Source: Thermoplasmatota archaeon
GTDB lineage: Archaea > Thermoplasmatota > E2 > JACPAO01 > JAHFTW01
Length of the DNA stretch: 64,000 bases
Reading direction: 5' to 3'
Assembly (NCBI GenBank): GCA_049602735.1
Contig: JBMYRW010000006.1
Coordinates: 5,655 to 69,654, forward strand
Shown in pieces: positions 23,880 through 53,415 of the stretch. The translations under genes and the position numbers were made by a program. Every line of letters starts with the position of its first letter. The stretch's first letter is position 1. Under the pieces are notes generated by a model. It did not search any database. It had not been told where the DNA came from and saw only the letters and a program-made list of their open reading frames with translations.

Positions 23880-24978
23880 TGCCGGCGCGCCGACGCCCCA
23901 CGAAGGCCGCCAGGGCCAACGCCAGGAGGATGAACGCCGCACCGGCGCCGGGCGCTTCCTCATCTCCGTCGTCGCCCGCTCCGGCATCATCCGCGAGGTC
24001 GCCCTCCTCTCCGCCTTGCGACGGGGCGGCCATGAGCCCGATGTCTGCCGCCTGGATGACGCCCGCAAGATCCACGGCGAACACCATGCCGTCCCAGGAG
24101 CCGAAGCCTTCGGCGACGCGCACAGAGGTCGGCGAATCCGCATGCTCGAAGAGGACGCAGGCCTCCCCCGTCGCCGGGTCGCCCATGAGGGTCTTGAAGC
24201 GCTCGTGGGACGTGAGCAGCACCCGGCCATCGGCGGTCACCGCCACATCGTCCATGAGGTGCGGCACCACGGGCGCGCCAGGATCGGAGGCTACCGGCGC
24301 GCCGGTGTTGACGGCGTTGAACGCGAAGAGCTGCTCGCGCTGCGACGGGTCGGCGAGGCTCCAGGCCTCCACGCCGCTGCCCAGTTCACCCACTTGGCCG
24401 ACAACGAGCCGGTCGCCGTCCGGGTGCAGGGACAGGCCGTTGGGCACCAGCCCTTCGGCCCAGGTCGTCCATGAGCCGTCGGGGGCAATGCGGTAGAGCT
24501 CCGTCCGGAAGCCGTGCGCGAGGTAGAGGTGGCCGTCCGGTGCGGCGACCATGCCGTTGGCACCGCCGAAGCCCGTGGCGAACACCTCGAATGCCGGCAG
24601 GCCGGGTTCCGGGAAGCGCAGCACGCGGCCGTCCACGTCGGTGGTGACCCCGAGCCCTTGCGAGACGTAGAGGGCGCCGTCCATACTGGCCAACCCCATG
24701 ACCTCAGGACCGTTGCGGCCAGGGTCGGGCGTGGTGATGTGCTCCACGCGGCCGTTAGCAAACGCCTGGTAGAGGCCGTCCTCGAACGCCGTCAGGTAGA
24801 GCACGCCTTCCAGGAAGTGGAGGTTCTCGAAGCCGACCTCGGCATCCGCGAAGACCACGGGCTCGATGCCGCACGACGGCCATGGCTGGGGTTCGGGGAG
24901 CTCGTTGTAGAAGGGGATGACCTGGCTCGATGCGACGGGCAACAGGAGAAGCAGCGGCAGGGCCGCCATGATGCGCAT
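23872..24978 (-). CDS. Secreted SMP-30/gluconolactonase-like beta-propeller with PGF-CTERM-like anchor
   Basis: ORF trimmed to MRIMAALPLLLLLPVASSQ. Propeller-type repeats (PNGLSLHPDGDRLVV, ANGMVAAPDGHLYLA). C-terminus is an acidic linker followed by PGAGAAFILLALALAAFVGRRRA. Confidence 0.65.
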   Translation of the reverse strand: MRIMAALPLLLLLPVASSQVIPFYNELPEPQPWPSCGIEPVVFADAEVGFENLHFLEGVLYLTAFEDGLYQAFANGRVEHITTPDPGRNGPEVMGLASMDGALYVSQGLGVTTDVDGRVLRFPEPGLPAFEVFATGFGGANGMVAAPDGHLYLAHGFRTELYRIAPDGSWTTWAEGLVPNGLSLHPDGDRLVVGQVGELGSGVEAWSLADPSQREQLFAFNAVNTGAPVASDPGAPVVPHLMDDVAVTADGRVLLTSHERFKTLMGDPATGEACVLFEHADSPTSVRVAEGFGSWDGMVFAVDLAGVIQAADIGLMAAPSQGGEEGDLADDAGAGDDGDEEAPGAGAAFILLALALAAFVGRRRAGTT

Positions 24979-25114
24979 GGGCTTCCAGCCTGGCCGCCCG
25001 CCTTGAACGTTATGGGACAGCGTGCTCTGTGCCGAAACCCGCGCCGGGAGGGATTCTTGATGCAGAGCCGCCCACCGCATGGCATAGCGCGGTCGCAGAA
25101 CCAGTTTGATGGAT

Positions 25115-25135
25115 GTCGCAACGGCGTCGCAACGG
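25115..25135. repeat. Tandem direct repeat GTCGCAACGG-c-GTCGCAACGG
   Basis: Read directly from the sequence. It lies in the low-GC intergenic region between the divergent genes at 24978 and 25288. Confidence 0.6.
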
Positions 25136-25287
25136 TCCATATGCGGCAATGGGCCGCGGTGGCATAACCGGGAGCGACAGGAAGGAGAAGCCACCCAATG
25201 GGTGGAAAACGGGACAATAGCGAGTTAACCTTCCCCCCCGCAAACCACGGCAAGATTCTTTGACACTGTGATGTCTTCTCAGTCTTG

Positions 25288-26328
25288 ATGGCAGACGGGT
25301 TTTCGGTGCGTATGCTCCTCTTGGATGGCGACGTCGACGGCGTGCGGTTCCTTGAGGTTGCAAACTGGACGGGGCTCGGGGTCCTGGCCCCCCGAGACCG
25401 TTATTCCGAGATCCGTCGAGAGGCTGAATACGACCGAACCGGCGTCTACTTGCTTTTGGGGCCCGACCCAGACAACGATGCACGGACCCGCGCGTATATT
25501 GGACGCGCTGAGAAATTGCAAACGCGGCTAGATGCCCACGCCAAAGAGAAAGGCTGGTGGGACACTTGCATGTGCTTCACCACGTCGGACAATTCACTGA
25601 CACTGACACATATTCAATACCTTGAAGCAGCGCTTCTCGACCAGGCCCGAGAGGCCGGCCAAGTGGTTTTGGACAATACACAGTATCCCGATGTTCCTGA
25701 TTTGGGGAGAGCCGACCGCGAAGATTTGCAGCGATTCCTGGAAAAAGTCCTCCTCCTCGCGGGGATGGCCGGGTTGCCCATCTTTGATGTCGTAGATTCA
25801 ACGCCAGCCGAGCAGGGGTACGGAACGACTGCGACCCCGGACGAAGCGCAATTCCCCGGCGTAGAGTTCTCGTATTCTGGTTCGGGGAATTATGACGCCT
25901 CCGGACGATTTGTAGGGCATCGCCGATTCCTAGTCACCCGCGGTTCAGAAGCGCGTTCGGACGAAACCGGCAGCTGCCCGGCAAAGGTTCGAGCCGTCCG
26001 TGCCAAGCTCCGAGACGAAGGTATTCTCGTCCAACGAGGAGACAAGCTGGCGTTTACGGCCGACCACGTCTTCAATTCCCCAAGTCTGGCCGCCGGGGTT
26101 GTTTATGGCGGCTCGTCGAACGGTCGAACTGCGTGGTCCAACGACGAAGGTCGAACCATCAATGAACTGGATCGCTTGGACATCGAAGCGCAAGAAACCG
26201 ACGAAGCAGAAGGCCCACTCATTGATGAAGACGAAAACAATGGTCGCCCCAACGCCGAACCGGCTGCCACGGTTACTGCGCTTGCCGACGGCACGCCGCT
26301 AGATCCCATTCAAGCTGGGGAAGGATAA
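25288..26328 (+). CDS. GIY-YIG nuclease family protein with C-terminal DUF4357 domain and acidic tail
   Basis: GVYLLLGP...RAYIGRAEKLQTRLDAH (GIY...YIG plus Arg), then YLEAALL (Glu). C-terminal FLVTRGSEAR...NSPSLAAGVVYGGSSNGRTAW is the DUF4357 signature. Locally reduced G+C. Confidence 0.8.
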   Translation: MADGFSVRMLLLDGDVDGVRFLEVANWTGLGVLAPRDRYSEIRREAEYDRTGVYLLLGPDPDNDARTRAYIGRAEKLQTRLDAHAKEKGWWDTCMCFTTSDNSLTLTHIQYLEAALLDQAREAGQVVLDNTQYPDVPDLGRADREDLQRFLEKVLLLAGMAGLPIFDVVDSTPAEQGYGTTATPDEAQFPGVEFSYSGSGNYDASGRFVGHRRFLVTRGSEARSDETGSCPAKVRAVRAKLRDEGILVQRGDKLAFTADHVFNSPSLAAGVVYGGSSNGRTAWSNDEGRTINELDRLDIEAQETDEAEGPLIDEDENNGRPNAEPAATVTALADGTPLDPIQAGEG

Positions 26329-26548
26329 CAAGTCACTCGACCCAACGCTCGCTGCGCTTGCCCACTCACTTCGCTCGCGGAGGCTTAGCTCAACCATTAG
26401 GCCCGCCTTTCCGTATTCGTGTAACCGTACAGCCAGCGAGGCTTAGTGCCTAAACACACCTCGGAAGGAGGGTTTAGACGTAGAGCCTGCAGACCGGGCC
26501 ACACGCGGCTGCGACCGAACCCGTATGAGTCCGGCGGCTGGACGCCGC

Positions 26549-35637: not shown

Positions 35638-35838
35638 ATGGCCACGACGCTTCACTTCGACACCAGGGGGCGCCTCACCATCCCCGCCCGGCTGCGACGC
35701 CATCTCGGCACCCACGTCGTCGCCATCCCGACGCCCAAAGGCATCGAACTCTACACCGCGCCTGAACACGTCGACCTGCCCGCCGACGCCGCCAACGTCA
35801 CCGGCGAAGACGCCGCCACGGCCGAAGTCGATGGTTGA
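35638..35838 (+). CDS. vapB: AbrB/SpoVT-fold antitoxin (VapB-like)
   Basis: MATTLHFDTRGRLTIPARLRRHLG is the swapped-hairpin motif. 66 aa. Overlaps the PIN gene by 8 nt. Confidence 0.75.
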   Translation: MATTLHFDTRGRLTIPARLRRHLGTHVVAIPTPKGIELYTAPEHVDLPADAANVTGEDAATAEVDG

Positions 35839-36196
35839 CTACGCCGACGCCGACCTGGTCACGGCCATCCTCAAACCCACGGACCACCTCAAGGCCCGCG
35901 CCGAGGCCCACCTCGCCCTGCACGACGTGGTCGTACCCTTCAGCGTCGGCATCGAACTGCTCTTCGTCGCCCGCAAACACGGCGTCCCGTGCCGCGACTG
36001 GATCGCCGCTGCCACCCGCCACTTCGACGTGGAGCGTGCCGACATTCTCCTCGCCGCCGCGCGCGCCCTGGACCTGGAACAGGTGGGCACCGTGTTCGAC
36101 GCCGTCCATGCCGCCAGCGCCCTACAGGACGACGGGCGGCTGCACACCACCGACCGGAAGATCAGGGCGTCGGGGTTTCCGATCAAGGGTTGGTGA
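35831..36196 (+). CDS. vapC: PIN-domain ribonuclease toxin (VapC-like)
   Basis: Conserved acidic positions: N-terminal D (MVDYADAD), E (VGIELLF), D (FDAVHAASAL), D (HTTDRK). 121 aa. Confidence 0.8.
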   Translation: MVDYADADLVTAILKPTDHLKARAEAHLALHDVVVPFSVGIELLFVARKHGVPCRDWIAAATRHFDVERADILLAAARALDLEQVGTVFDAVHAASALQDDGRLHTTDRKIRASGFPIKGW

Positions 36197-36238
36197 GCGG
36201 GCCGTTTCCGAGCAACACCACTTGGCGGCCCCTTGGAG

Positions 36239-36267
36239 CGATAATGCGATTCACTCTTGCATTATCG
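36239..36267. other. Perfect 9-bp inverted repeat CGATAATGC-n11-GCATTATCG
   Basis: Read directly from the sequence. It lies 43 nt after the vapC stop, at the point where G+C drops. Confidence 0.5.
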
Positions 36268-36289
36268 GCCGTTAATGGGATTTCCGAGC

Positions 36290-36578
36290 GAATTCATCGA
36301 GCAGGTTGCCACCGTAGACCGGCTTCAGGTAGGCCGTGGCCAACCGATATTCGCGGCCGCGCTTCTCTCCGCGATGCACCAAGTAACCTTGGTCCGGAGG
36401 AGATTAGCAGGCGTTTGTCAGGGGCGGTCCACCGAATTCCATTGATTTTGGCACGTCGGCGCCTGCCACTTGATGCATTCCTCGATGCGACCGCCGGCGG
36501 AGAGGATTGCTTCACGGACCCCCTGGATCACCGGTTTCATCGGGTTGTAGTAGGCAGCGAGCCATGTTTTTTCCAGAG
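36290..36578 (-). pseudogene. Degraded DUF1801-like gene remnant
   Basis: One minus-strand frame reads TWLAAYYNPMKPVIQGVREAILSAGGRIEECIKWQAPTCQ. This parallels DDWFAAKDHPQEPAMQAVRDVILEDERMGECIKWSTPTF of the gene at 28400. It has a TGA five codons upstream and a premature TGA at 36420-36418. Similarity continues only in other frames. Confidence 0.35.
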
Positions 36579-36675
36579 GTCATGCGGGGCCCATTGCGTT
36601 GCGGGAAACGTTCGGATTGAGGGCAGAGAGGCCAGCCCTGCTGCGCGTTGCATTTTCCGTGGCGCGCCCCATTTC

Positions 36676-37809
36676 TTAGGAGTCGTCTGCCTGAGTCAAG
36701 ACTCGTCCCAAGGGGACGTATTGGCTTAATCGGGCTTCCGTCGACTTGCCCGTAGCGAAGCCGGTTTGCATGTCCTCACTGGACCAGAATGCAACGGCGG
36801 CGTCACGAAGGTCGGTGCGGGGCCTACGGCCATTGGCAAGTTGGTGCCCGACTCCCAGCGCAAAGATTTCGAACGCCGTAATCAGGAAAGGACGCCGGAA
36901 ACTCTGTTTGGCATCATCCCACTTTCGCAACGAATCTCCGGCCCCATGTTCTAGAATGTGGTCGAACGTTTCGGTAAAAATTTGACGCAATCTGGCATCC
37001 CCCTTGGGGTTCTTATAAGCAAGCTCCGCCGAAATGTGGTCTAGCACCTGAGGGAAGTCTCGTAGGTTGGAGGTTGTGATTTGCTGTTCTGGCATGTTGT
37101 GGAGGGCCAGGAAACGTAGCACAAGCTCCAGGTCAAAGCGTTCCTGAAGTTGTTTCTCTGAAAGGTCAGTGCATTCGACGAATGACGGATGCGCAGCGAG
37201 CTGTTCAAGCCACTTGTGAAAGTCTGGCGACACGGCCACGATCATCGCTGAACGCATCTCCTGTGCGGTTGCAACCGACCCGTAGCTATTGAGTCGCTGG
37301 AACAAATCATACTTTGCTTGAGGCGAGGATTCGCGCTTGATAATCTTGAGATCCAACTTAGTTCTCTTGATGTCCAGCCGGTGCGCATCTGAAAGCGAAA
37401 GTTCGGCGTTCTCGTTGCTCCAGTAGCGCCCATCGAGAGCGGGAATTAGCGCAGTGCCTTGCAACTGCAATGGCGGCCGGAGTTTGCCTTGTTCATCGCG
37501 CAGTTCTCCTTGCAGTTCGAGGATTGTTGACACGCGTTGCAGCCCATCGACAAGCTCCCACGTCCCGTCCTGAGATTGTGCCACGAAAATGCTTGGAATG
37601 GGGATGCCTAGTAAGAGACTCTCAATAAGACGGGATTTCTGCGTTTCTGTCCAGCGGTAAAAACGTTGAAACTCCGGCCGAATAATCAACTCGCCATCCC
37701 GGTATAAATTCGTGAGCTCCCCAATGCTCATGGGGTATCCGTCTGAGGCAATTGTCCGACGCGTGTCCGAAAGTTGCTGCTCCAGCGGATCCTGCTGTAA
37801 GTCACTCAT
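36676..37809 (-). CDS. DUF262 (ParB-like / GmrSD N-terminal type) domain protein, no DUF1524/HNH domain
   Basis: IIRPEFQRFYRW and VDGLQRVSTI are the two DUF262 signature motifs (xQRxxxW, DGxQR). 377 aa with a helical C-terminal half. Sampled lines give about 50% G+C. Confidence 0.85.
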   Translation of the reverse strand: MSDLQQDPLEQQLSDTRRTIASDGYPMSIGELTNLYRDGELIIRPEFQRFYRWTETQKSRLIESLLLGIPIPSIFVAQSQDGTWELVDGLQRVSTILELQGELRDEQGKLRPPLQLQGTALIPALDGRYWSNENAELSLSDAHRLDIKRTKLDLKIIKRESSPQAKYDLFQRLNSYGSVATAQEMRSAMIVAVSPDFHKWLEQLAAHPSFVECTDLSEKQLQERFDLELVLRFLALHNMPEQQITTSNLRDFPQVLDHISAELAYKNPKGDARLRQIFTETFDHILEHGAGDSLRKWDDAKQSFRRPFLITAFEIFALGVGHQLANGRRPRTDLRDAAVAFWSSEDMQTGFATGKSTEARLSQYVPLGRVLTQADDS

Positions 37810-38587
37810 CAGTCCATCCCTCCGTTCGCGTTAATTCCTTGGCAAGGGAGTCGAGATCGGGGAAGACCATAGTTTCCGTGAAGCCCGTGAGCCTTAGCTG
37901 ATCAAGCATTTGTTCCTTGTCGCCAGTGAGATCTACCTGCCAAAGGTTCTGGGGGTTATCGCCGGCAAGCTCCTTCAGGTCACGAGTTTCTTCACCCCAG
38001 ACTGTGAACGTACCTCGCTGAGCAACAATGCGCTCCGTATTGTGGGTGCCGTAGATGGCCACCGGGAACTTCAAGCGCTTCTTTTCGCAGAAAGGCGCAT
38101 ATGCATCGACGGAATCTTCATTCGTCGTCAGAACGGTTACACTCTCCCCGTATTCGGAAAATACGGGTGCCGATCTGTTCCACGCAACAGGGTCAATACA
38201 CCAAACGGTTGGGATACACGGTCCCTCATGCTCTCCAGCCTCGTGGCCGTGGCCAGACAAGGCAAAGTGGGCCGACGCAAGGAGGCTTTCACTCCAATCA
38301 AGCAGCCTTGTCGGCGCGCCGTAGTGTTGCATCGCGAACAGCTGTTCCCAGTTGGTTTGAGGATAGCCTGAGGGCCAATATGCTACGCTGCGCTGGCGGA
38401 ATCGCGTAAGAAGGCGTTCTTCCCGAGCAAAGATTGCGGCAACGTCTTTGTCGTCTCGTAGAAGCCCTGGGTGGAGTGAATATTCGCGGCATGATACGCC
38501 CCGATACCACAGTCCTGCGATGCGCGCCGTTGTATCTCCGATGCTGACCGCCTGGTGCACTAGCTCCTCTATGGAGCCAGCAGTCAT
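37802..38587 (-). CDS. FRG domain protein
   Basis: ORF (TTG 38602) trimmed to the ATG at 38587. LWYRGVS is the (F/Y)RG motif and AMQHYGAPTRLLDWSES is the core FRG block. The stop overlaps the DUF262 ATG (ATGAGTGA). Confidence 0.8.
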   Translation of the reverse strand: MTAGSIEELVHQAVSIGDTTARIAGLWYRGVSCREYSLHPGLLRDDKDVAAIFAREERLLTRFRQRSVAYWPSGYPQTNWEQLFAMQHYGAPTRLLDWSESLLASAHFALSGHGHEAGEHEGPCIPTVWCIDPVAWNRSAPVFSEYGESVTVLTTNEDSVDAYAPFCEKKRLKFPVAIYGTHNTERIVAQRGTFTVWGEETRDLKELAGDNPQNLWQVDLTGDKEQMLDQLRLTGFTETMVFPDLDSLAKELTRTEGWTDE

Positions 38588-38668
38588 TTGTTCAACAGGC
38601 AAGGTGTTGGCGACGGGGCTTCGGCATTATGGGCGTTTCCTTGGCCCGGCGGCCTACTTGTGAAACCC

Positions 38669-39817
38669 CTACGTCACAATCTCCCGGAGCAACCCTTCCG
38701 ACGCGGCCATCTTGACCTCCCTCGCGACCCGCCGCCCGGTCGACATCTGGGTGCGCCACAGCGCGTTGCCGTAGGGGTGGCCCATGCCGACGTGGACGTT
38801 GGTGCCGCCGCCGATGCGGGGGGCGACGTCGTAGATGAAGAAGTTCATGTCCTTGTCCACGCAGGTCTGGAGGCAGAAGGGTCCGATGATGCCGGGGTTA
38901 TAGTGTTCCTCCGCGGCCTTGACCCATTGTTCGCCCAGGTCGAACACCTTGCCCAGGAGGGACTCGCGGACGGTGGCGGTGTTGTGGCCGACGACGGTCA
39001 TCTCGGGGATCATCTGGTGGTCCGGGAGGGTCATCTGCTGCGGCGCCGGGATGCGCACGTGGCCGTCGAGGCTGCTCTCGAAGCGCCAGTCGATGCCCAG
39101 CAGCTCCAAGGGTTCCTCGCCGTTGGCCTTGTTGACCGGGCTGTAGAAGAAGTTGAAGTTGAACACGGGGCCGATCACGTACTCCTCGATGCGCGCCGTC
39201 TCCAGGGAGGGCTCGTCGATGACACCCTGCGCGATGAGCTTCTGGGCCTTCTCGTGGAACTCTTCGGTCGACGCGCAGGTGAAGAAGCCGCGCTCCAGGG
39301 GCTTCTGGGAGTGATGCAGCTTGACGATCGAGAGCTGCTCGATGTCGTTGTAGTGGTCGATCTTCTTGGGGAACGGCATGCCGGCCTTCTCCAATAGCCA
39401 GTAGTAGTCCTGCTGCTCCTCGCGTTCCTCCGAGCGCAGGAGGTTGCGGCTTCCGATCATGGGCACCGCGAAGTCGTCCTCGCAGGCATCGATGGAGCAG
39501 TAGGAGGTCCAGGCGCGGTTGGGCACCCAGACGACGTTGCGGTCGCGCAGGCGCTGCTGCTGGTCCGGCGCCATGATGCCGTTGTACTTCGGGTACGTCC
39601 AGCACTCGTCCACGGCGCCGCGGCCGCTGGCGGTCTTCTTGAAGAACCGGTCGTACACCGCCGAGCGTCCCTCCTGGGCGATGGCGATGTTGGGCATGCC
39701 CTCGTCGGTGGCGCCGTCGTAGACGTCCAGGCCGCTGTGGCTGGCGACACAGGCGAGCTCCAGCTTCTTCGGGTCGTACGCTTCGACTGCGTCCTGCATC
39801 GCGCCGCGGTCCATCAT
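38669..39817 (-). CDS. purP: 5-formaminoimidazole-4-carboxamide ribonucleotide (FAICAR) synthetase PurP
   Basis: Archaeal ATP-grasp PurP blocks: ACVASHSGLDVYDGA, NRAWTSY, IEEYVIGPVFNFNFFYSP, GIDWRFESSLDG, IGPFCLQ, FIYDVAPRIGGGTN. Confidence 0.9.
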   Translation of the reverse strand: MMDRGAMQDAVEAYDPKKLELACVASHSGLDVYDGATDEGMPNIAIAQEGRSAVYDRFFKKTASGRGAVDECWTYPKYNGIMAPDQQQRLRDRNVVWVPNRAWTSYCSIDACEDDFAVPMIGSRNLLRSEEREEQQDYYWLLEKAGMPFPKKIDHYNDIEQLSIVKLHHSQKPLERGFFTCASTEEFHEKAQKLIAQGVIDEPSLETARIEEYVIGPVFNFNFFYSPVNKANGEEPLELLGIDWRFESSLDGHVRIPAPQQMTLPDHQMIPEMTVVGHNTATVRESLLGKVFDLGEQWVKAAEEHYNPGIIGPFCLQTCVDKDMNFFIYDVAPRIGGGTNVHVGMGHPYGNALWRTQMSTGRRVAREVKMAASEGLLREIVT

Positions 39818-52194: not shown

Positions 52195-53415
52195 ATGCGA
52201 GCAATGAGCCTGGTCGAGGAAGAGCTGGGCGGCCCGACCGTCTTCAAGGACCTGGCGAAGCTCGACTTCGACTACGTCCCGGAGGAGCTGCCGCACCGCG
52301 ACGACGCCATCCGCTTCCTCGTGCGCACCTACAAGGGGCTCGGCCAGGGCAGCACCCACGAGAACGTCCTCATCTGGGGCCCCGTCGGCTGCGGCAAGAC
52401 CGCCCTCGCCAAGCGCTTCAGCCACGACCTGGCCACGGCGCTCGGCCGCCAAGGTCGCCGCATGGAGGTGGCGCACGTCAACTGCCGCCGCCGCAAGACC
52501 GCCGGCCTCGCCATGCTGGGCATCCTCAACCGCTTCGATGCCAACTATCCGGAGCGCGGCTTCAGCGTCGGCGAGATGGCCCGCGACCTGCGCACCCATC
52601 TGCAACGCCGCGACAGCCACCTCATCGTCATCCTGGACGAAGTGGATGCCCTGCTACGCGCCGACGGCGGCAACCTGGTCTACGACCTCACCCGCTTCAA
52701 CGACGAAGTCGGCACCTCCTGGACCGGCATCAGCCTCATCATGGTGAGCCAGCAGAACGTCCTCGAGCACCTGGACGACGCGGCGCTCTCCACCTTCAAG
52801 CGCGGCAACGTCCTGCAGCTCTCCCCGTACCCCCGCGACGAGATGGAAGGCATCCTGGAACACCGCAGCGACCTCGCCTTCCACCCTGGCGCCATGGATC
52901 CGGAATCCGTCAGCCTCATCGCCGACATCGCCGGCGAGGCCCCCGGCGGCTCTAGCGGCGGCCCCGGTGACGCCCGCCTCGGCATCGAGCTCCTCTGGAA
53001 GGCCGGCCTCATGGCGGACGACCAGCGCACCGACCTGGTGGAACCCGAACACGTGCGCGCCGCCAAGGCAGAGACGTTCAGCGTCGTCACCGAGAGCAAG
53101 CTGCGCAACCTCCCCAAGCACCCGCTTCTGGCCTTGATGGCGATCGGCCGGAGGCTTGGGCGGGACGGCGGCGCCTACACCACCACCGGCGCGGCGGAGG
53201 AGGCGTACCAATTGGTCTGCGAGGAGTTCGGCGAAGAGCCTCGCGGCCACACCCAGTACTGGAAGTACCTCAAACAGCTCCAGGACGCCGGGTTCCTGTT
53301 CAGCAAGCTCTCCGGCCGCGGCCACGCCGGGACGACGCAGCTGCTCTCCGTGCCCGACGTGCCCACCAAGGTGCTTGAGGAGAAGGTGCAGGAGATCCTC
53401 GGCCGTCCCGCCTGA
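52195..53415 (+). CDS. cdc6: Orc1/Cdc6 replication initiator
   Basis: LDFDYVPEELPHRDDAI, Walker A IWGPVGCGKT, Walker B IVILDEVD, sensor GDARLGIELL, and a C-terminal winged helix. Confidence 0.9.
   Translation: MRAMSLVEEELGGPTVFKDLAKLDFDYVPEELPHRDDAIRFLVRTYKGLGQGSTHENVLIWGPVGCGKTALAKRFSHDLATALGRQGRRMEVAHVNCRRRKTAGLAMLGILNRFDANYPERGFSVGEMARDLRTHLQRRDSHLIVILDEVDALLRADGGNLVYDLTRFNDEVGTSWTGISLIMVSQQNVLEHLDDAALSTFKRGNVLQLSPYPRDEMEGILEHRSDLAFHPGAMDPESVSLIADIAGEAPGGSSGGPGDARLGIELLWKAGLMADDQRTDLVEPEHVRAAKAETFSVVTESKLRNLPKHPLLALMAIGRRLGRDGGAYTTTGAAEEAYQLVCEEFGEEPRGHTQYWKYLKQLQDAGFLFSKLSGRGHAGTTQLLSVPDVPTKVLEEKVQEILGRPA

Follow-up and report, generated by a model that had tools for sequence, protein, structure and literature searches.

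Introduction

Defense systems that combine a DUF262 sensor with exchangeable effectors are well established, as Menshen, PD-T4-2 and Dazbog illustrate (PMC12065111, PMC10952713). Mutation or deletion of the DUF262 genes abolishes defense in Menshen and Dazbog (PMC10952713), and NsnA of Menshen has been proposed to act as a DNA sensor (PMC12065111). For PD-T4-2, the two listed domains are DUF262 and HEPN (PF18735) (PMC10952713); the system protects E. coli from T4, also in the native strain ECOR65 (PMC9519451; Vassallo et al. 2022), and ParB-HEPN operons were already noted as conflict systems in 2013 (PMC3710099; Anantharaman et al. 2013). In DUF262 proteins the motif DGxQR constitutes the nucleoside triphosphate (NTP) pocket (PMC12065111, PMC10952713). 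Here, we analyzed a stretch of 64,000 nucleotides from a Thermoplasmatota archaeon (contig JBMYRW010000006.1), referred to as the window, that carries a cassette of two overlapping genes for an FRG-domain protein and a stand-alone DUF262 protein. We demonstrate that this FRG-DUF262 pair is a widespread, strictly two-gene, co-inherited module and that, within one DUF262 clade, FRG and a HEPN RNase replace each other as partner.

The cassette resembles PD-T4-2 in being a two-gene module with a stand-alone DUF262 protein that lacks DUF1524 and matches the PADLOC model PD-T4-2_A (E=4.3e-24, residues 29-241). A sister clade of this protein, 33-55% identical to it, is paired with a HEPN protein of the RiboL-PSP/MAE_28990 type, a family listed for PD-T4-2, and start and stop codons are coupled as tightly in these PD-T4-2-like DUF262-HEPN pairs as in FRG-DUF262 pairs. 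However, the partner in PD-T4-2 is HEPN, whereas the partner in the window is FRG and no HEPN is present. HEPN lies downstream of DUF262 in the PD-T4-2-like pairs while FRG lies upstream of it in window-type pairs, and HEPN is an RNase whereas the chemistry of FRG is predicted to be NAD+-dependent. The likeness to Menshen (NsnABC) lies in the DUF262 protein, which is NsnA-like across DUF262 and the NsnA-C/ParBDB region; this PADLOC match (E=1.3e-52, residues 18-319 against profile positions 42-321 of 385) is stronger than that to PD-T4-2_A. Membership in Menshen was nevertheless rejected, as neither NsnB (ABC ATPase plus DUF3696) nor NsnC (inPIN plus effector) is adjacent and no third family recurs across 22 loci. 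With GmrSD, BrxU and SspE the protein has in common an N-terminal ParB-like NTPase domain of the DUF262 type with the DGxQR motif. The cassette was not assigned to this group, given that a DUF1524 HNH domain is found in neither protein, the two genes encode separate polypeptides and FRG is not a recognizable nuclease. Dazbog (DzbAB) was discarded as well, with a DzbA match of just E=0.031 over 29 residues and no DzbB match of FRG.

Two further comparisons concern the FRG protein. PDC-S15 is a single-gene PADLOC candidate. The FRG protein matches 14 PDC-S15 models (best PDLC04938, E=1.5e-38) and keeps W27, R29, G30, H88, R94, D97 and Q190, but in contrast to a single-gene candidate its subfamily is always coupled to DUF262. 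RES-Xre and other NAD+-targeting toxins of the ADP-ribosyltransferase (ART) fold possibly share their fold and NAD+ chemistry with FRG, and RES, a pertussis-like toxin, PARP and PolyVal ART are its top weak matches. The difference to RES-Xre is that no match is significant, that other residues are conserved and that the partner is a ParB-like NTPase instead of an Xre antitoxin.

A previous sequence-only reading of this DNA had proposed the cassette as a candidate undescribed module. Our literature search found no paper that joins the terms 'FRG domain' and 'DUF262', though Burroughs & Aravind 2020, outside the scope of this search, may note the association. FRG is not mentioned in the Menshen survey of DUF262 neighborhoods, neither FRG nor DUF262 is mentioned in the main text of PMC13069673 and the DefensePredictor preprint, and PADLOC-DB 2.0 contains no model for the FRG-DUF262 pair. 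We found no named or tested system of this composition, but to speak of an undescribed kind of system would be too strong, as DUF262 with exchangeable effectors is known.

A co-inherited pair of genes

The closest relatives of both proteins agree with them in length and come from bacteria (Microcystis, Aeromonas, Ramlibacter, Azospirillum, Mesorhizobium, Rhizobium and others), and dozens of matches in the two homologue lists lie on shared contigs. Scanning a single genome of each species with an FRG alignment recovered 33 loci, every one of them bacterial. In these species-representative genomes, every FRG gene of at least 40% identity with readable downstream DNA (18/18) is followed immediately 3' by a DUF262 gene on the same strand, including one locus (L019) whose DUF262 is divergent (27% identity, Pfam E=1.8e-17), while FRGs of at most 32% identity to that of the window are solo genes. 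The DUF262 start overlaps or abuts the FRG stop, with junctions such as ATGA, GTGA, TGATG, TAATG or alike. Conversely, all metagenomic DUF262s of at least 57% identity with enough upstream DNA have FRG upstream. The same order, an 'FRG domain-containing protein' and then a 'DUF262 domain-containing protein', is annotated on a Ralstonia solanacearum megaplasmid and a Hymenobacter plasmid. Clustering of the open reading frames (ORFs) of 22 pair loci returned FRG and DUF262 as the only common families, and across 47 loci the two proteins diverge in parallel, their pairwise identities being correlated (r=0.91, Mantel p=0.001). The pair has a lower G+C content than its surroundings in nearly all hosts. 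The two genes thus form one conserved unit; the sequence-only reading had taken them as one transcription and translation unit.

Exchange of FRG and HEPN partners

Reciprocal scans of IMG/VR and metagenome contigs with a DUF262 alignment, together with the earlier loci and scored with hidden Markov models, yielded 122 loci of the DUF262 clade. FRG lies immediately upstream in 56 of them and a HEPN gene immediately downstream in 54; 8 are cut by the contig end, 4 have neither partner and none has both. One of the four (L020) does carry FRG, with both genes frameshifted. The downstream partner is a HEPN RNase of 215-240 aa with matches to PF18735 HEPN_RiboL-PSP (E=4e-37) and PF18737 HEPN_MAE_28990 and with the R-x4-H motif RNxIAHG, whereas HEPN models gave no match in the 56 FRG-linked loci, the window included. 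Thus, we show that FRG and the HEPN RNase are mutually exclusive partners in one DUF262 clade. Between 45 and 55% identity to the DUF262 protein of the window partners are mixed, and below about 45% every informative locus is HEPN-linked. Locus L137 (480-1490, 2688-4453) is a partial exception in this lower range and the only one with FRG near a DUF262-HEPN pair: about 1.1 kb upstream of its HEPN-type DUF262 pair lies a separate FRG gene (Pfam E=1.9e-20).

In a neighbor-joining tree the FRG-linked DUF262s form a single derived clade nested in a HEPN-linked grade. Given this nesting and the fact that HEPN is a known toxin and effector domain, FRG occupies the effector slot, which supports the first option of the earlier suggestion that it may act as the effector or sensor of a split system. 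It had also been suggested that the nuclease is missing here and that FRG takes its place. Indeed, neither protein contains DUF1524, but since the nearest NsnA/PD-T4-2_A-like DUF262s have a HEPN RNase as partner, FRG replaces HEPN, not DUF1524, in a family that already lacks the latter. The DUF262s of both types score highest on the PADLOC model NsnA and next on PD-T4-2_A. Although the DUF262s of the sister clade match PD-T4-2_A, its HEPN proteins gave no match to the PADLOC model PD-T4-2_B, and we therefore refer to this clade only as PD-T4-2-like.

Since the pair always occurs together and is the effector-swapped sister of DUF262-HEPN pairs that match the validated composition of PD-T4-2, FRG-DUF262 is probably a defense system. 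With slightly more confidence than doubt, we propose a two-gene defense module in which the NsnA/PD-T4-2_A-like DUF262 protein would sense foreign DNA and an NTPase switch would license the FRG effector.

Sequence features of the two proteins

As read before, the cassette consists of two minus-strand genes with an 8-nt overlap, and all motifs quoted earlier for both products were found (Table 1). Both ORFs are uninterrupted and, in alignments with relatives, all family-invariant residues are kept. The FRG product had been given as 261 aa. An ORF of this length does begin at an ATG, but the N-terminal consensus of the homologues is MP[IV]E and the window protein read from an upstream TTG begins with MPVEQ. 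Because the homologue N-termini fit, the TTG is the likelier start and the gene probably begins 15 nt past the end first stated (38587); the 266-aa form exists in a database record.

Table 1. Features of the cassette and their positions in the window
Feature	Position	Strand	Description and evidence
FRG-domain gene	37802..38602	-	266 aa from TTG 38602 (preferred), 261 aa from ATG 38587; ORF call, Pfam, PADLOC
FRG motif LWYRG	38498..38512	-	Residues 26-30; W27, R29 and G30 invariant family-wide; β-strand 27-31 in AlphaFold2 model
FRG motif QHYGAPTRLLDWS	38291..38329	-	Residues 87-99; H88, R94 and D97 invariant family-wide; alignments
FRG motif AQRGTF	38006..38023	-	Residues 189-194; Q190 invariant, starts β-strand; R186 nearly invariant
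Gene overlap of 8 nt, ATGAGTGA	37802..37809	-	DUF262 start codon inside the end of the FRG gene; translational coupling; read from sequence
DUF262 / ParB-like NTPase gene with NsnA-C (ParBDB)-like C-terminal half	36676..37809	-	377 aa; ORF call, Pfam, PADLOC
DUF262 motif I, IRPEFQRFYRW	37651..37683	-	Residues 43-53; invariant in DUF262 alignment; motif role from PMC12065111
DUF262 motif II, DGLQR	37534..37548	-	Residues 88-92; invariant in DUF262 alignment; predicted NTP-binding center
Low-G+C island (0.53-0.59)	36200..38650	.	Cassette and gene remnant, between purP and VapBC-like pair; G+C scan

Both domain assignments hold in a Pfam profile search: the upstream protein (261-aa form) matches FRG (PF08867, E=3.7e-20, residues 26-115) and the downstream protein matches GmrSD_N/DUF262 (PF03235, E=3.7e-23, residues 30-189). 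DUF1524/GmrSD_C (PF07510) had no match at E<=0.1 in either cassette protein, NCBIfam contained no model matching either of them, and PADLOC SspE matches of the DUF262 protein were marginal and limited to its N-terminus. The C-terminal half of the DUF262 protein had been described as only helical. It can be assigned further, as the NsnA model aligns through residue 319 and spans the region named the ParBDB DNA-binding domain in PMC12065111. Searches of the PDB with the DUF262 protein, both as single sequence and as alignment profile, returned nothing meaningful.

Homologues of the DUF262 protein number 4122, the best being 58-64% identical, and those of the FRG protein 2151, the best being 51-62% identical and about 263 aa long. 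A further homology search with a mixed FRG alignment gave mostly the same clade, and the FRG family as a whole comprises 8237 representative clusters (50% identity) at E<=1e-3. W27, R29, G30, L38, H88, R94, D97, F108 and Q190 are invariant in 99 diverse FRGs. Over-long matches (P0085, P0161, P0221, P0055) were inspected as candidate FRG-DUF262 fusion proteins and turned out to be merely mis-called N- or C-terminal extensions. Solo FRG genes are common in IMG/VR viral contigs, with 167 confirmed stretches that are mostly 22-31% identical to the FRG of the window, and FRG is therefore perhaps also used by phages and prophages. In two viral contigs with more similar FRGs (L147, 46%; L148, 37%) the contig edge directly follows FRG and a partner gene is not readable.

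Predicted fold and chemistry of the FRG protein

The statement of the sequence-only reading that FRG has no assigned function is correct insofar as we found no experimental assignment, but predictions exist. PADLOC lists FRG as PDC-S15, and the Aravind group (PMC9503650, citing Burroughs & Aravind 2020) places FRG (Frg) in the ART superfamily as a predicted NADase antiviral effector. Membership in this superfamily is also asserted in PMC12522546.

A confident AlphaFold2 (AF2) model of FRG was obtained from a 137-sequence alignment (pLDDT 88.5, pTM 0.86); for an earlier model from 35 sequences (pLDDT 63), Foldseek returned noise. With the 137-sequence model, the top PDB match was EcPltA (E=0.5, prob 0.20), followed by a RES toxin, tankyrase-2 and CARDS toxin, and the top match in BFVD was a PolyVal ART (E=0.21). 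The fold search for a nuclease-like or NADase-like FRG that had been suggested earlier thus put ADP-ribosyltransferases first in both libraries, none of them significant. In their direction, these structure searches agree weakly with an ART-type fold of FRG. In the model R29 is the last residue of a strand, T93-S99 form a strand followed by a helix and Q190 opens a later strand. From this order we infer, without superposition, a layout that may resemble the R/S/[QE] arrangement of ARTs, lacking the usual catalytic Glu. NAD+-dependent chemistry is the leading, as yet unproven, candidate for FRG.

Alternatively, FRG could be a novel nuclease that cuts DUF262-recognized DNA and stands in for the DUF1524 HNH domain, which would make the pair a split type IV restriction enzyme. 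The DUF262 domain is common to GmrSD, BrxU and SspE, one pair locus adjoins a full-length GmrSD and other restriction genes, and the invariant residues H88, D97, R94 and R29 are conceivable ligands of metal or phosphate. Moreover, Foldseek returned weak matches to HUH Rep nuclease domains, but these are shorter (45-100 columns) and of lower probability (0.02-0.04) than the ART matches (more than 200 columns, 0.14-0.20). Neither Pfam nor PADLOC nor NCBIfam linked FRG to a nuclease family, the sister systems carry a HEPN RNase rather than a DNase, and FRG is assigned to the ART superfamily in PMC9503650. Overall, we regard a split restriction enzyme as distinctly unlikely.

Genomic setting of the pair

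Some pair loci lie in defense islands or mobile elements. In Pseudomonas sp. URMO17WK12:I4 the pair follows hsdR, Abi_2, hsdM, hsdS, Fic and NERD genes in a type I restriction-modification (R-M) island, and in Nocardioides panacisoli it precedes genes for a full GmrSD, MTaX1-HNH, Vsr, Dcm+EcoRV and HNH. The Microcystis locus contains an integrase, HigBA and the insertion sequence (IS) IS66, and the locus of a deltaproteobacterial metagenome-assembled genome contains two integrases. On the Ralstonia solanacearum megaplasmid CP052129.1 (88180-93932, L233), the pair lies between two IS5-family transposases in a composite-transposon-like arrangement. Among 147 flanking ORFs of 15 genomes, Phage_integrase recurs more often than any other Pfam family (4 members), and the survey also contains PIN, HTH, type I R-M, mad3/mad8, PDC-S73, PDC-S48 and a Schlafen-type helicase as well as ordinary metabolism genes. 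A part of the loci has such a defense or mobile-element context, but several others lie among housekeeping genes.

These settings bear on two further explanations. In a toxin-antitoxin (TA) or addiction module, FRG would be a toxin restrained by the co-translated DUF262 protein, and the pair would stabilize mobile islands without sensing invaders. This would agree with the tight translational coupling, the strict two-gene architecture and the proximity to IS elements, integrases and further TA pairs, namely VapBC in the window and HigBA in Microcystis; in addition, related ART-fold RES proteins are TA toxins and Xre-RES is among the weak Foldseek matches. On the other hand, the DUF262 protein, at 377 aa, is enzyme-like, has invariant motifs for NTP binding as well as a DNA-binding half and would be an atypical antitoxin, and homologous DUF262 proteins work in bona fide defense (PMC10952713, PMC9519451). 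We consider a TA module unlikely; because the boundary between TA and abortive infection is soft, it also overlaps with the proposed defense module.

The pair might also have a non-conflict role as a housekeeping or DNA-metabolism accessory, for instance in repair or chromosome-associated regulation, or be an inert passenger of horizontal transfer in this archaeon. In more than 100 Bradyrhizobium assemblies it directly follows uvrA, in Aeromonas it has uvrD as a neighbor, and the DUF262 partner is highly conserved in sequence. However, the pair is patchy across phyla at 50-64% identity, its composition is unlike that of its hosts, some copies are IS-flanked or integrase-linked, the cassette is absent from close relatives of the window organism, and FRG and a HEPN toxin domain exclude each other as partner of DUF262. 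A passenger would fit the archaeal copy, an outlier at conserved positions with bacterial-type relatives only, but both ORFs are intact and every invariant residue is present. Overall, either version of this explanation appears very unlikely.

Proposed function

In our proposal, FRG-DUF262 is a self-contained two-gene module directed against mobile elements, that is viruses or plasmids. The DUF262 protein would be the sensor and switch, a ParB-like NTPase in which the motifs QR..W and DGxQR are intact and which is followed by a DNA-binding half of the NsnA-C/ParBDB type, and would recognize invading, possibly modified, DNA. The signal would then run from DUF262 to FRG, in that binding or hydrolysis of NTP licenses the partner. 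As the effector, FRG would most likely adopt an ART-type fold and consume NAD+, either as NADase or as ADP-ribosylating enzyme, and its action would halt the infected cell or the invader. Such a module would protect its hosts and might be active in the archaeon as well.

A more specific proposal is that FRG-DUF262 is a distinct and widespread immune system: upon sensing foreign DNA, which may be modified, the ParB-like NTPase would directly license an enzyme of the ART fold, with depletion of NAD+ or ADP-ribosylation of nucleic acid or protein as the outcome. We put this forward tentatively and rather doubt than expect it in this full form. If true, this coupling of sensor and effector would be new among ParB/DUF262 systems, the FRG family would receive its first biochemical function and the module would cross the boundary between bacteria and archaea.

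Several observations weigh against the defense module or its predicted chemistry. The FRG-DUF262 pair is known from sequence alone, and its protective role is a prediction. The DUF262 partner has a mean column identity of 71%, unusually high for a defense sensor. All of the IMG/VR viral or proviral loci of the DUF262 clade (20/20, L047-L066) are HEPN-type and none is FRG-linked. Enrichment near defense and mobile genes is suggestive and not demonstrated, because the flank counts lack a background correction, and the positions next to uvrA and uvrD are housekeeping settings. In regard to the fold, Foldseek gave no significant match for FRG in PDB and BFVD (ART matches at E 0.2-0.5, TM 0.24-0.39), and sequence and profile searches of the PDB with FRG returned no link to a solved structure. 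Where many ARTs carry the catalytic Glu, FRG has the invariant Gln Q190, and NADase or ART activity is therefore not assured. Finally, the copies in the window are outliers, changed at 11/106 and 10/163 highly conserved positions, mostly conservatively, compared to a median of 2. With about 10 highly conserved positions off consensus, the archaeal copies may not be expressed.

Still, the cassette gives a genetically defined slot to FRG, a large family that is common in viral contigs and for which we found no experimentally assigned function. Because FRG holds the slot of HEPN in the sister systems, its predicted role as NAD+-dependent effector is directly testable with a two-gene construct and point mutants. 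FRG would join HNH, HEPN and ABC-ATPase plus nuclease as interchangeable effectors of DUF262/ParB sensors, which appears as an emerging rule.

The archaeal locus and its surroundings

The G+C content of the cassette is 54.6% compared to 68.1% for the window, in which it is the lowest stretch of 1.9 kb (window mean 0.680, sd 0.031), and G+C at third codon positions is 0.59-0.60 in the cassette genes compared to 0.95 in the adjacent purP. These figures agree with the low G+C content that the sequence-only reading had noted in comparison to purP. The cassette bears a signature of horizontal transfer; acquisition by the archaeon from bacteria would be the best explanation for the presence of the module here, and the locus would then document the transfer of a DUF262-sensor module into an archaeal chromosome.

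The neighbors named in the sequence-only reading (purP, a thioesterase, a VapBC pair and a decayed gene) were recovered, two of them with sub-threshold matches. Pfam identifies purP (DUF1246+DUF1297), a 4HBT thioesterase, an AbrB/MraZ-type antitoxin and a PIN protein next to the cassette. The VapBC-like pair (35638-36196, plus strand) directly adjoins the low-G+C island, and its two genes also overlap by 8 nt; the antitoxin is of the AbrB/MraZ type (PF02381, E=1e-6), and the partner is a PIN-like protein of 121 aa with a Pfam score under the cut-off (19.7 vs 23.6 bits). The segment 36200-36675 is a frameshifted gene remnant with 59% G+C and a sub-threshold DUF1801 match (E=0.086); it may have come with the cassette or be a decayed resident gene. 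No convincing att sites or target-site duplications, sought as direct or inverted repeats on both sides of the island, were found.

Genomes with a PurP from the 90%-identity cluster of the window protein carry genes for PurP, an M24 peptidase and 4HBT at this place and lack FRG, DUF262 and the VapBC pair. Their flanks are about 70-77% identical to those of the window and rearranged, and because of this divergence they do not provide a clean empty site. In the metagenomic relative L227, purP (38702-39817) has 90.7% nucleotide identity to that of the window while its neighbor genes, which are rearranged, have 67-77%; purP therefore is unusually conserved or has itself been exchanged.

A second low-G+C island is found at 24900-26500 (0.56-0.61 vs 0.68-0.71 in its flanks). 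It carries an ORF of 347 aa (25285-26328, plus strand) with a C-terminal DUF4357 (E=1.4e-19), possibly another horizontally acquired gene. No tRNA genes were found in the window. An Orc1/Cdc6-type replication initiator is encoded at 52195-53415 on the plus strand (TIGR02928, E=1e-72). This initiator and PurP, both encoded in the window, show that the host is an archaeon, and a replication origin may be located near the initiator gene.

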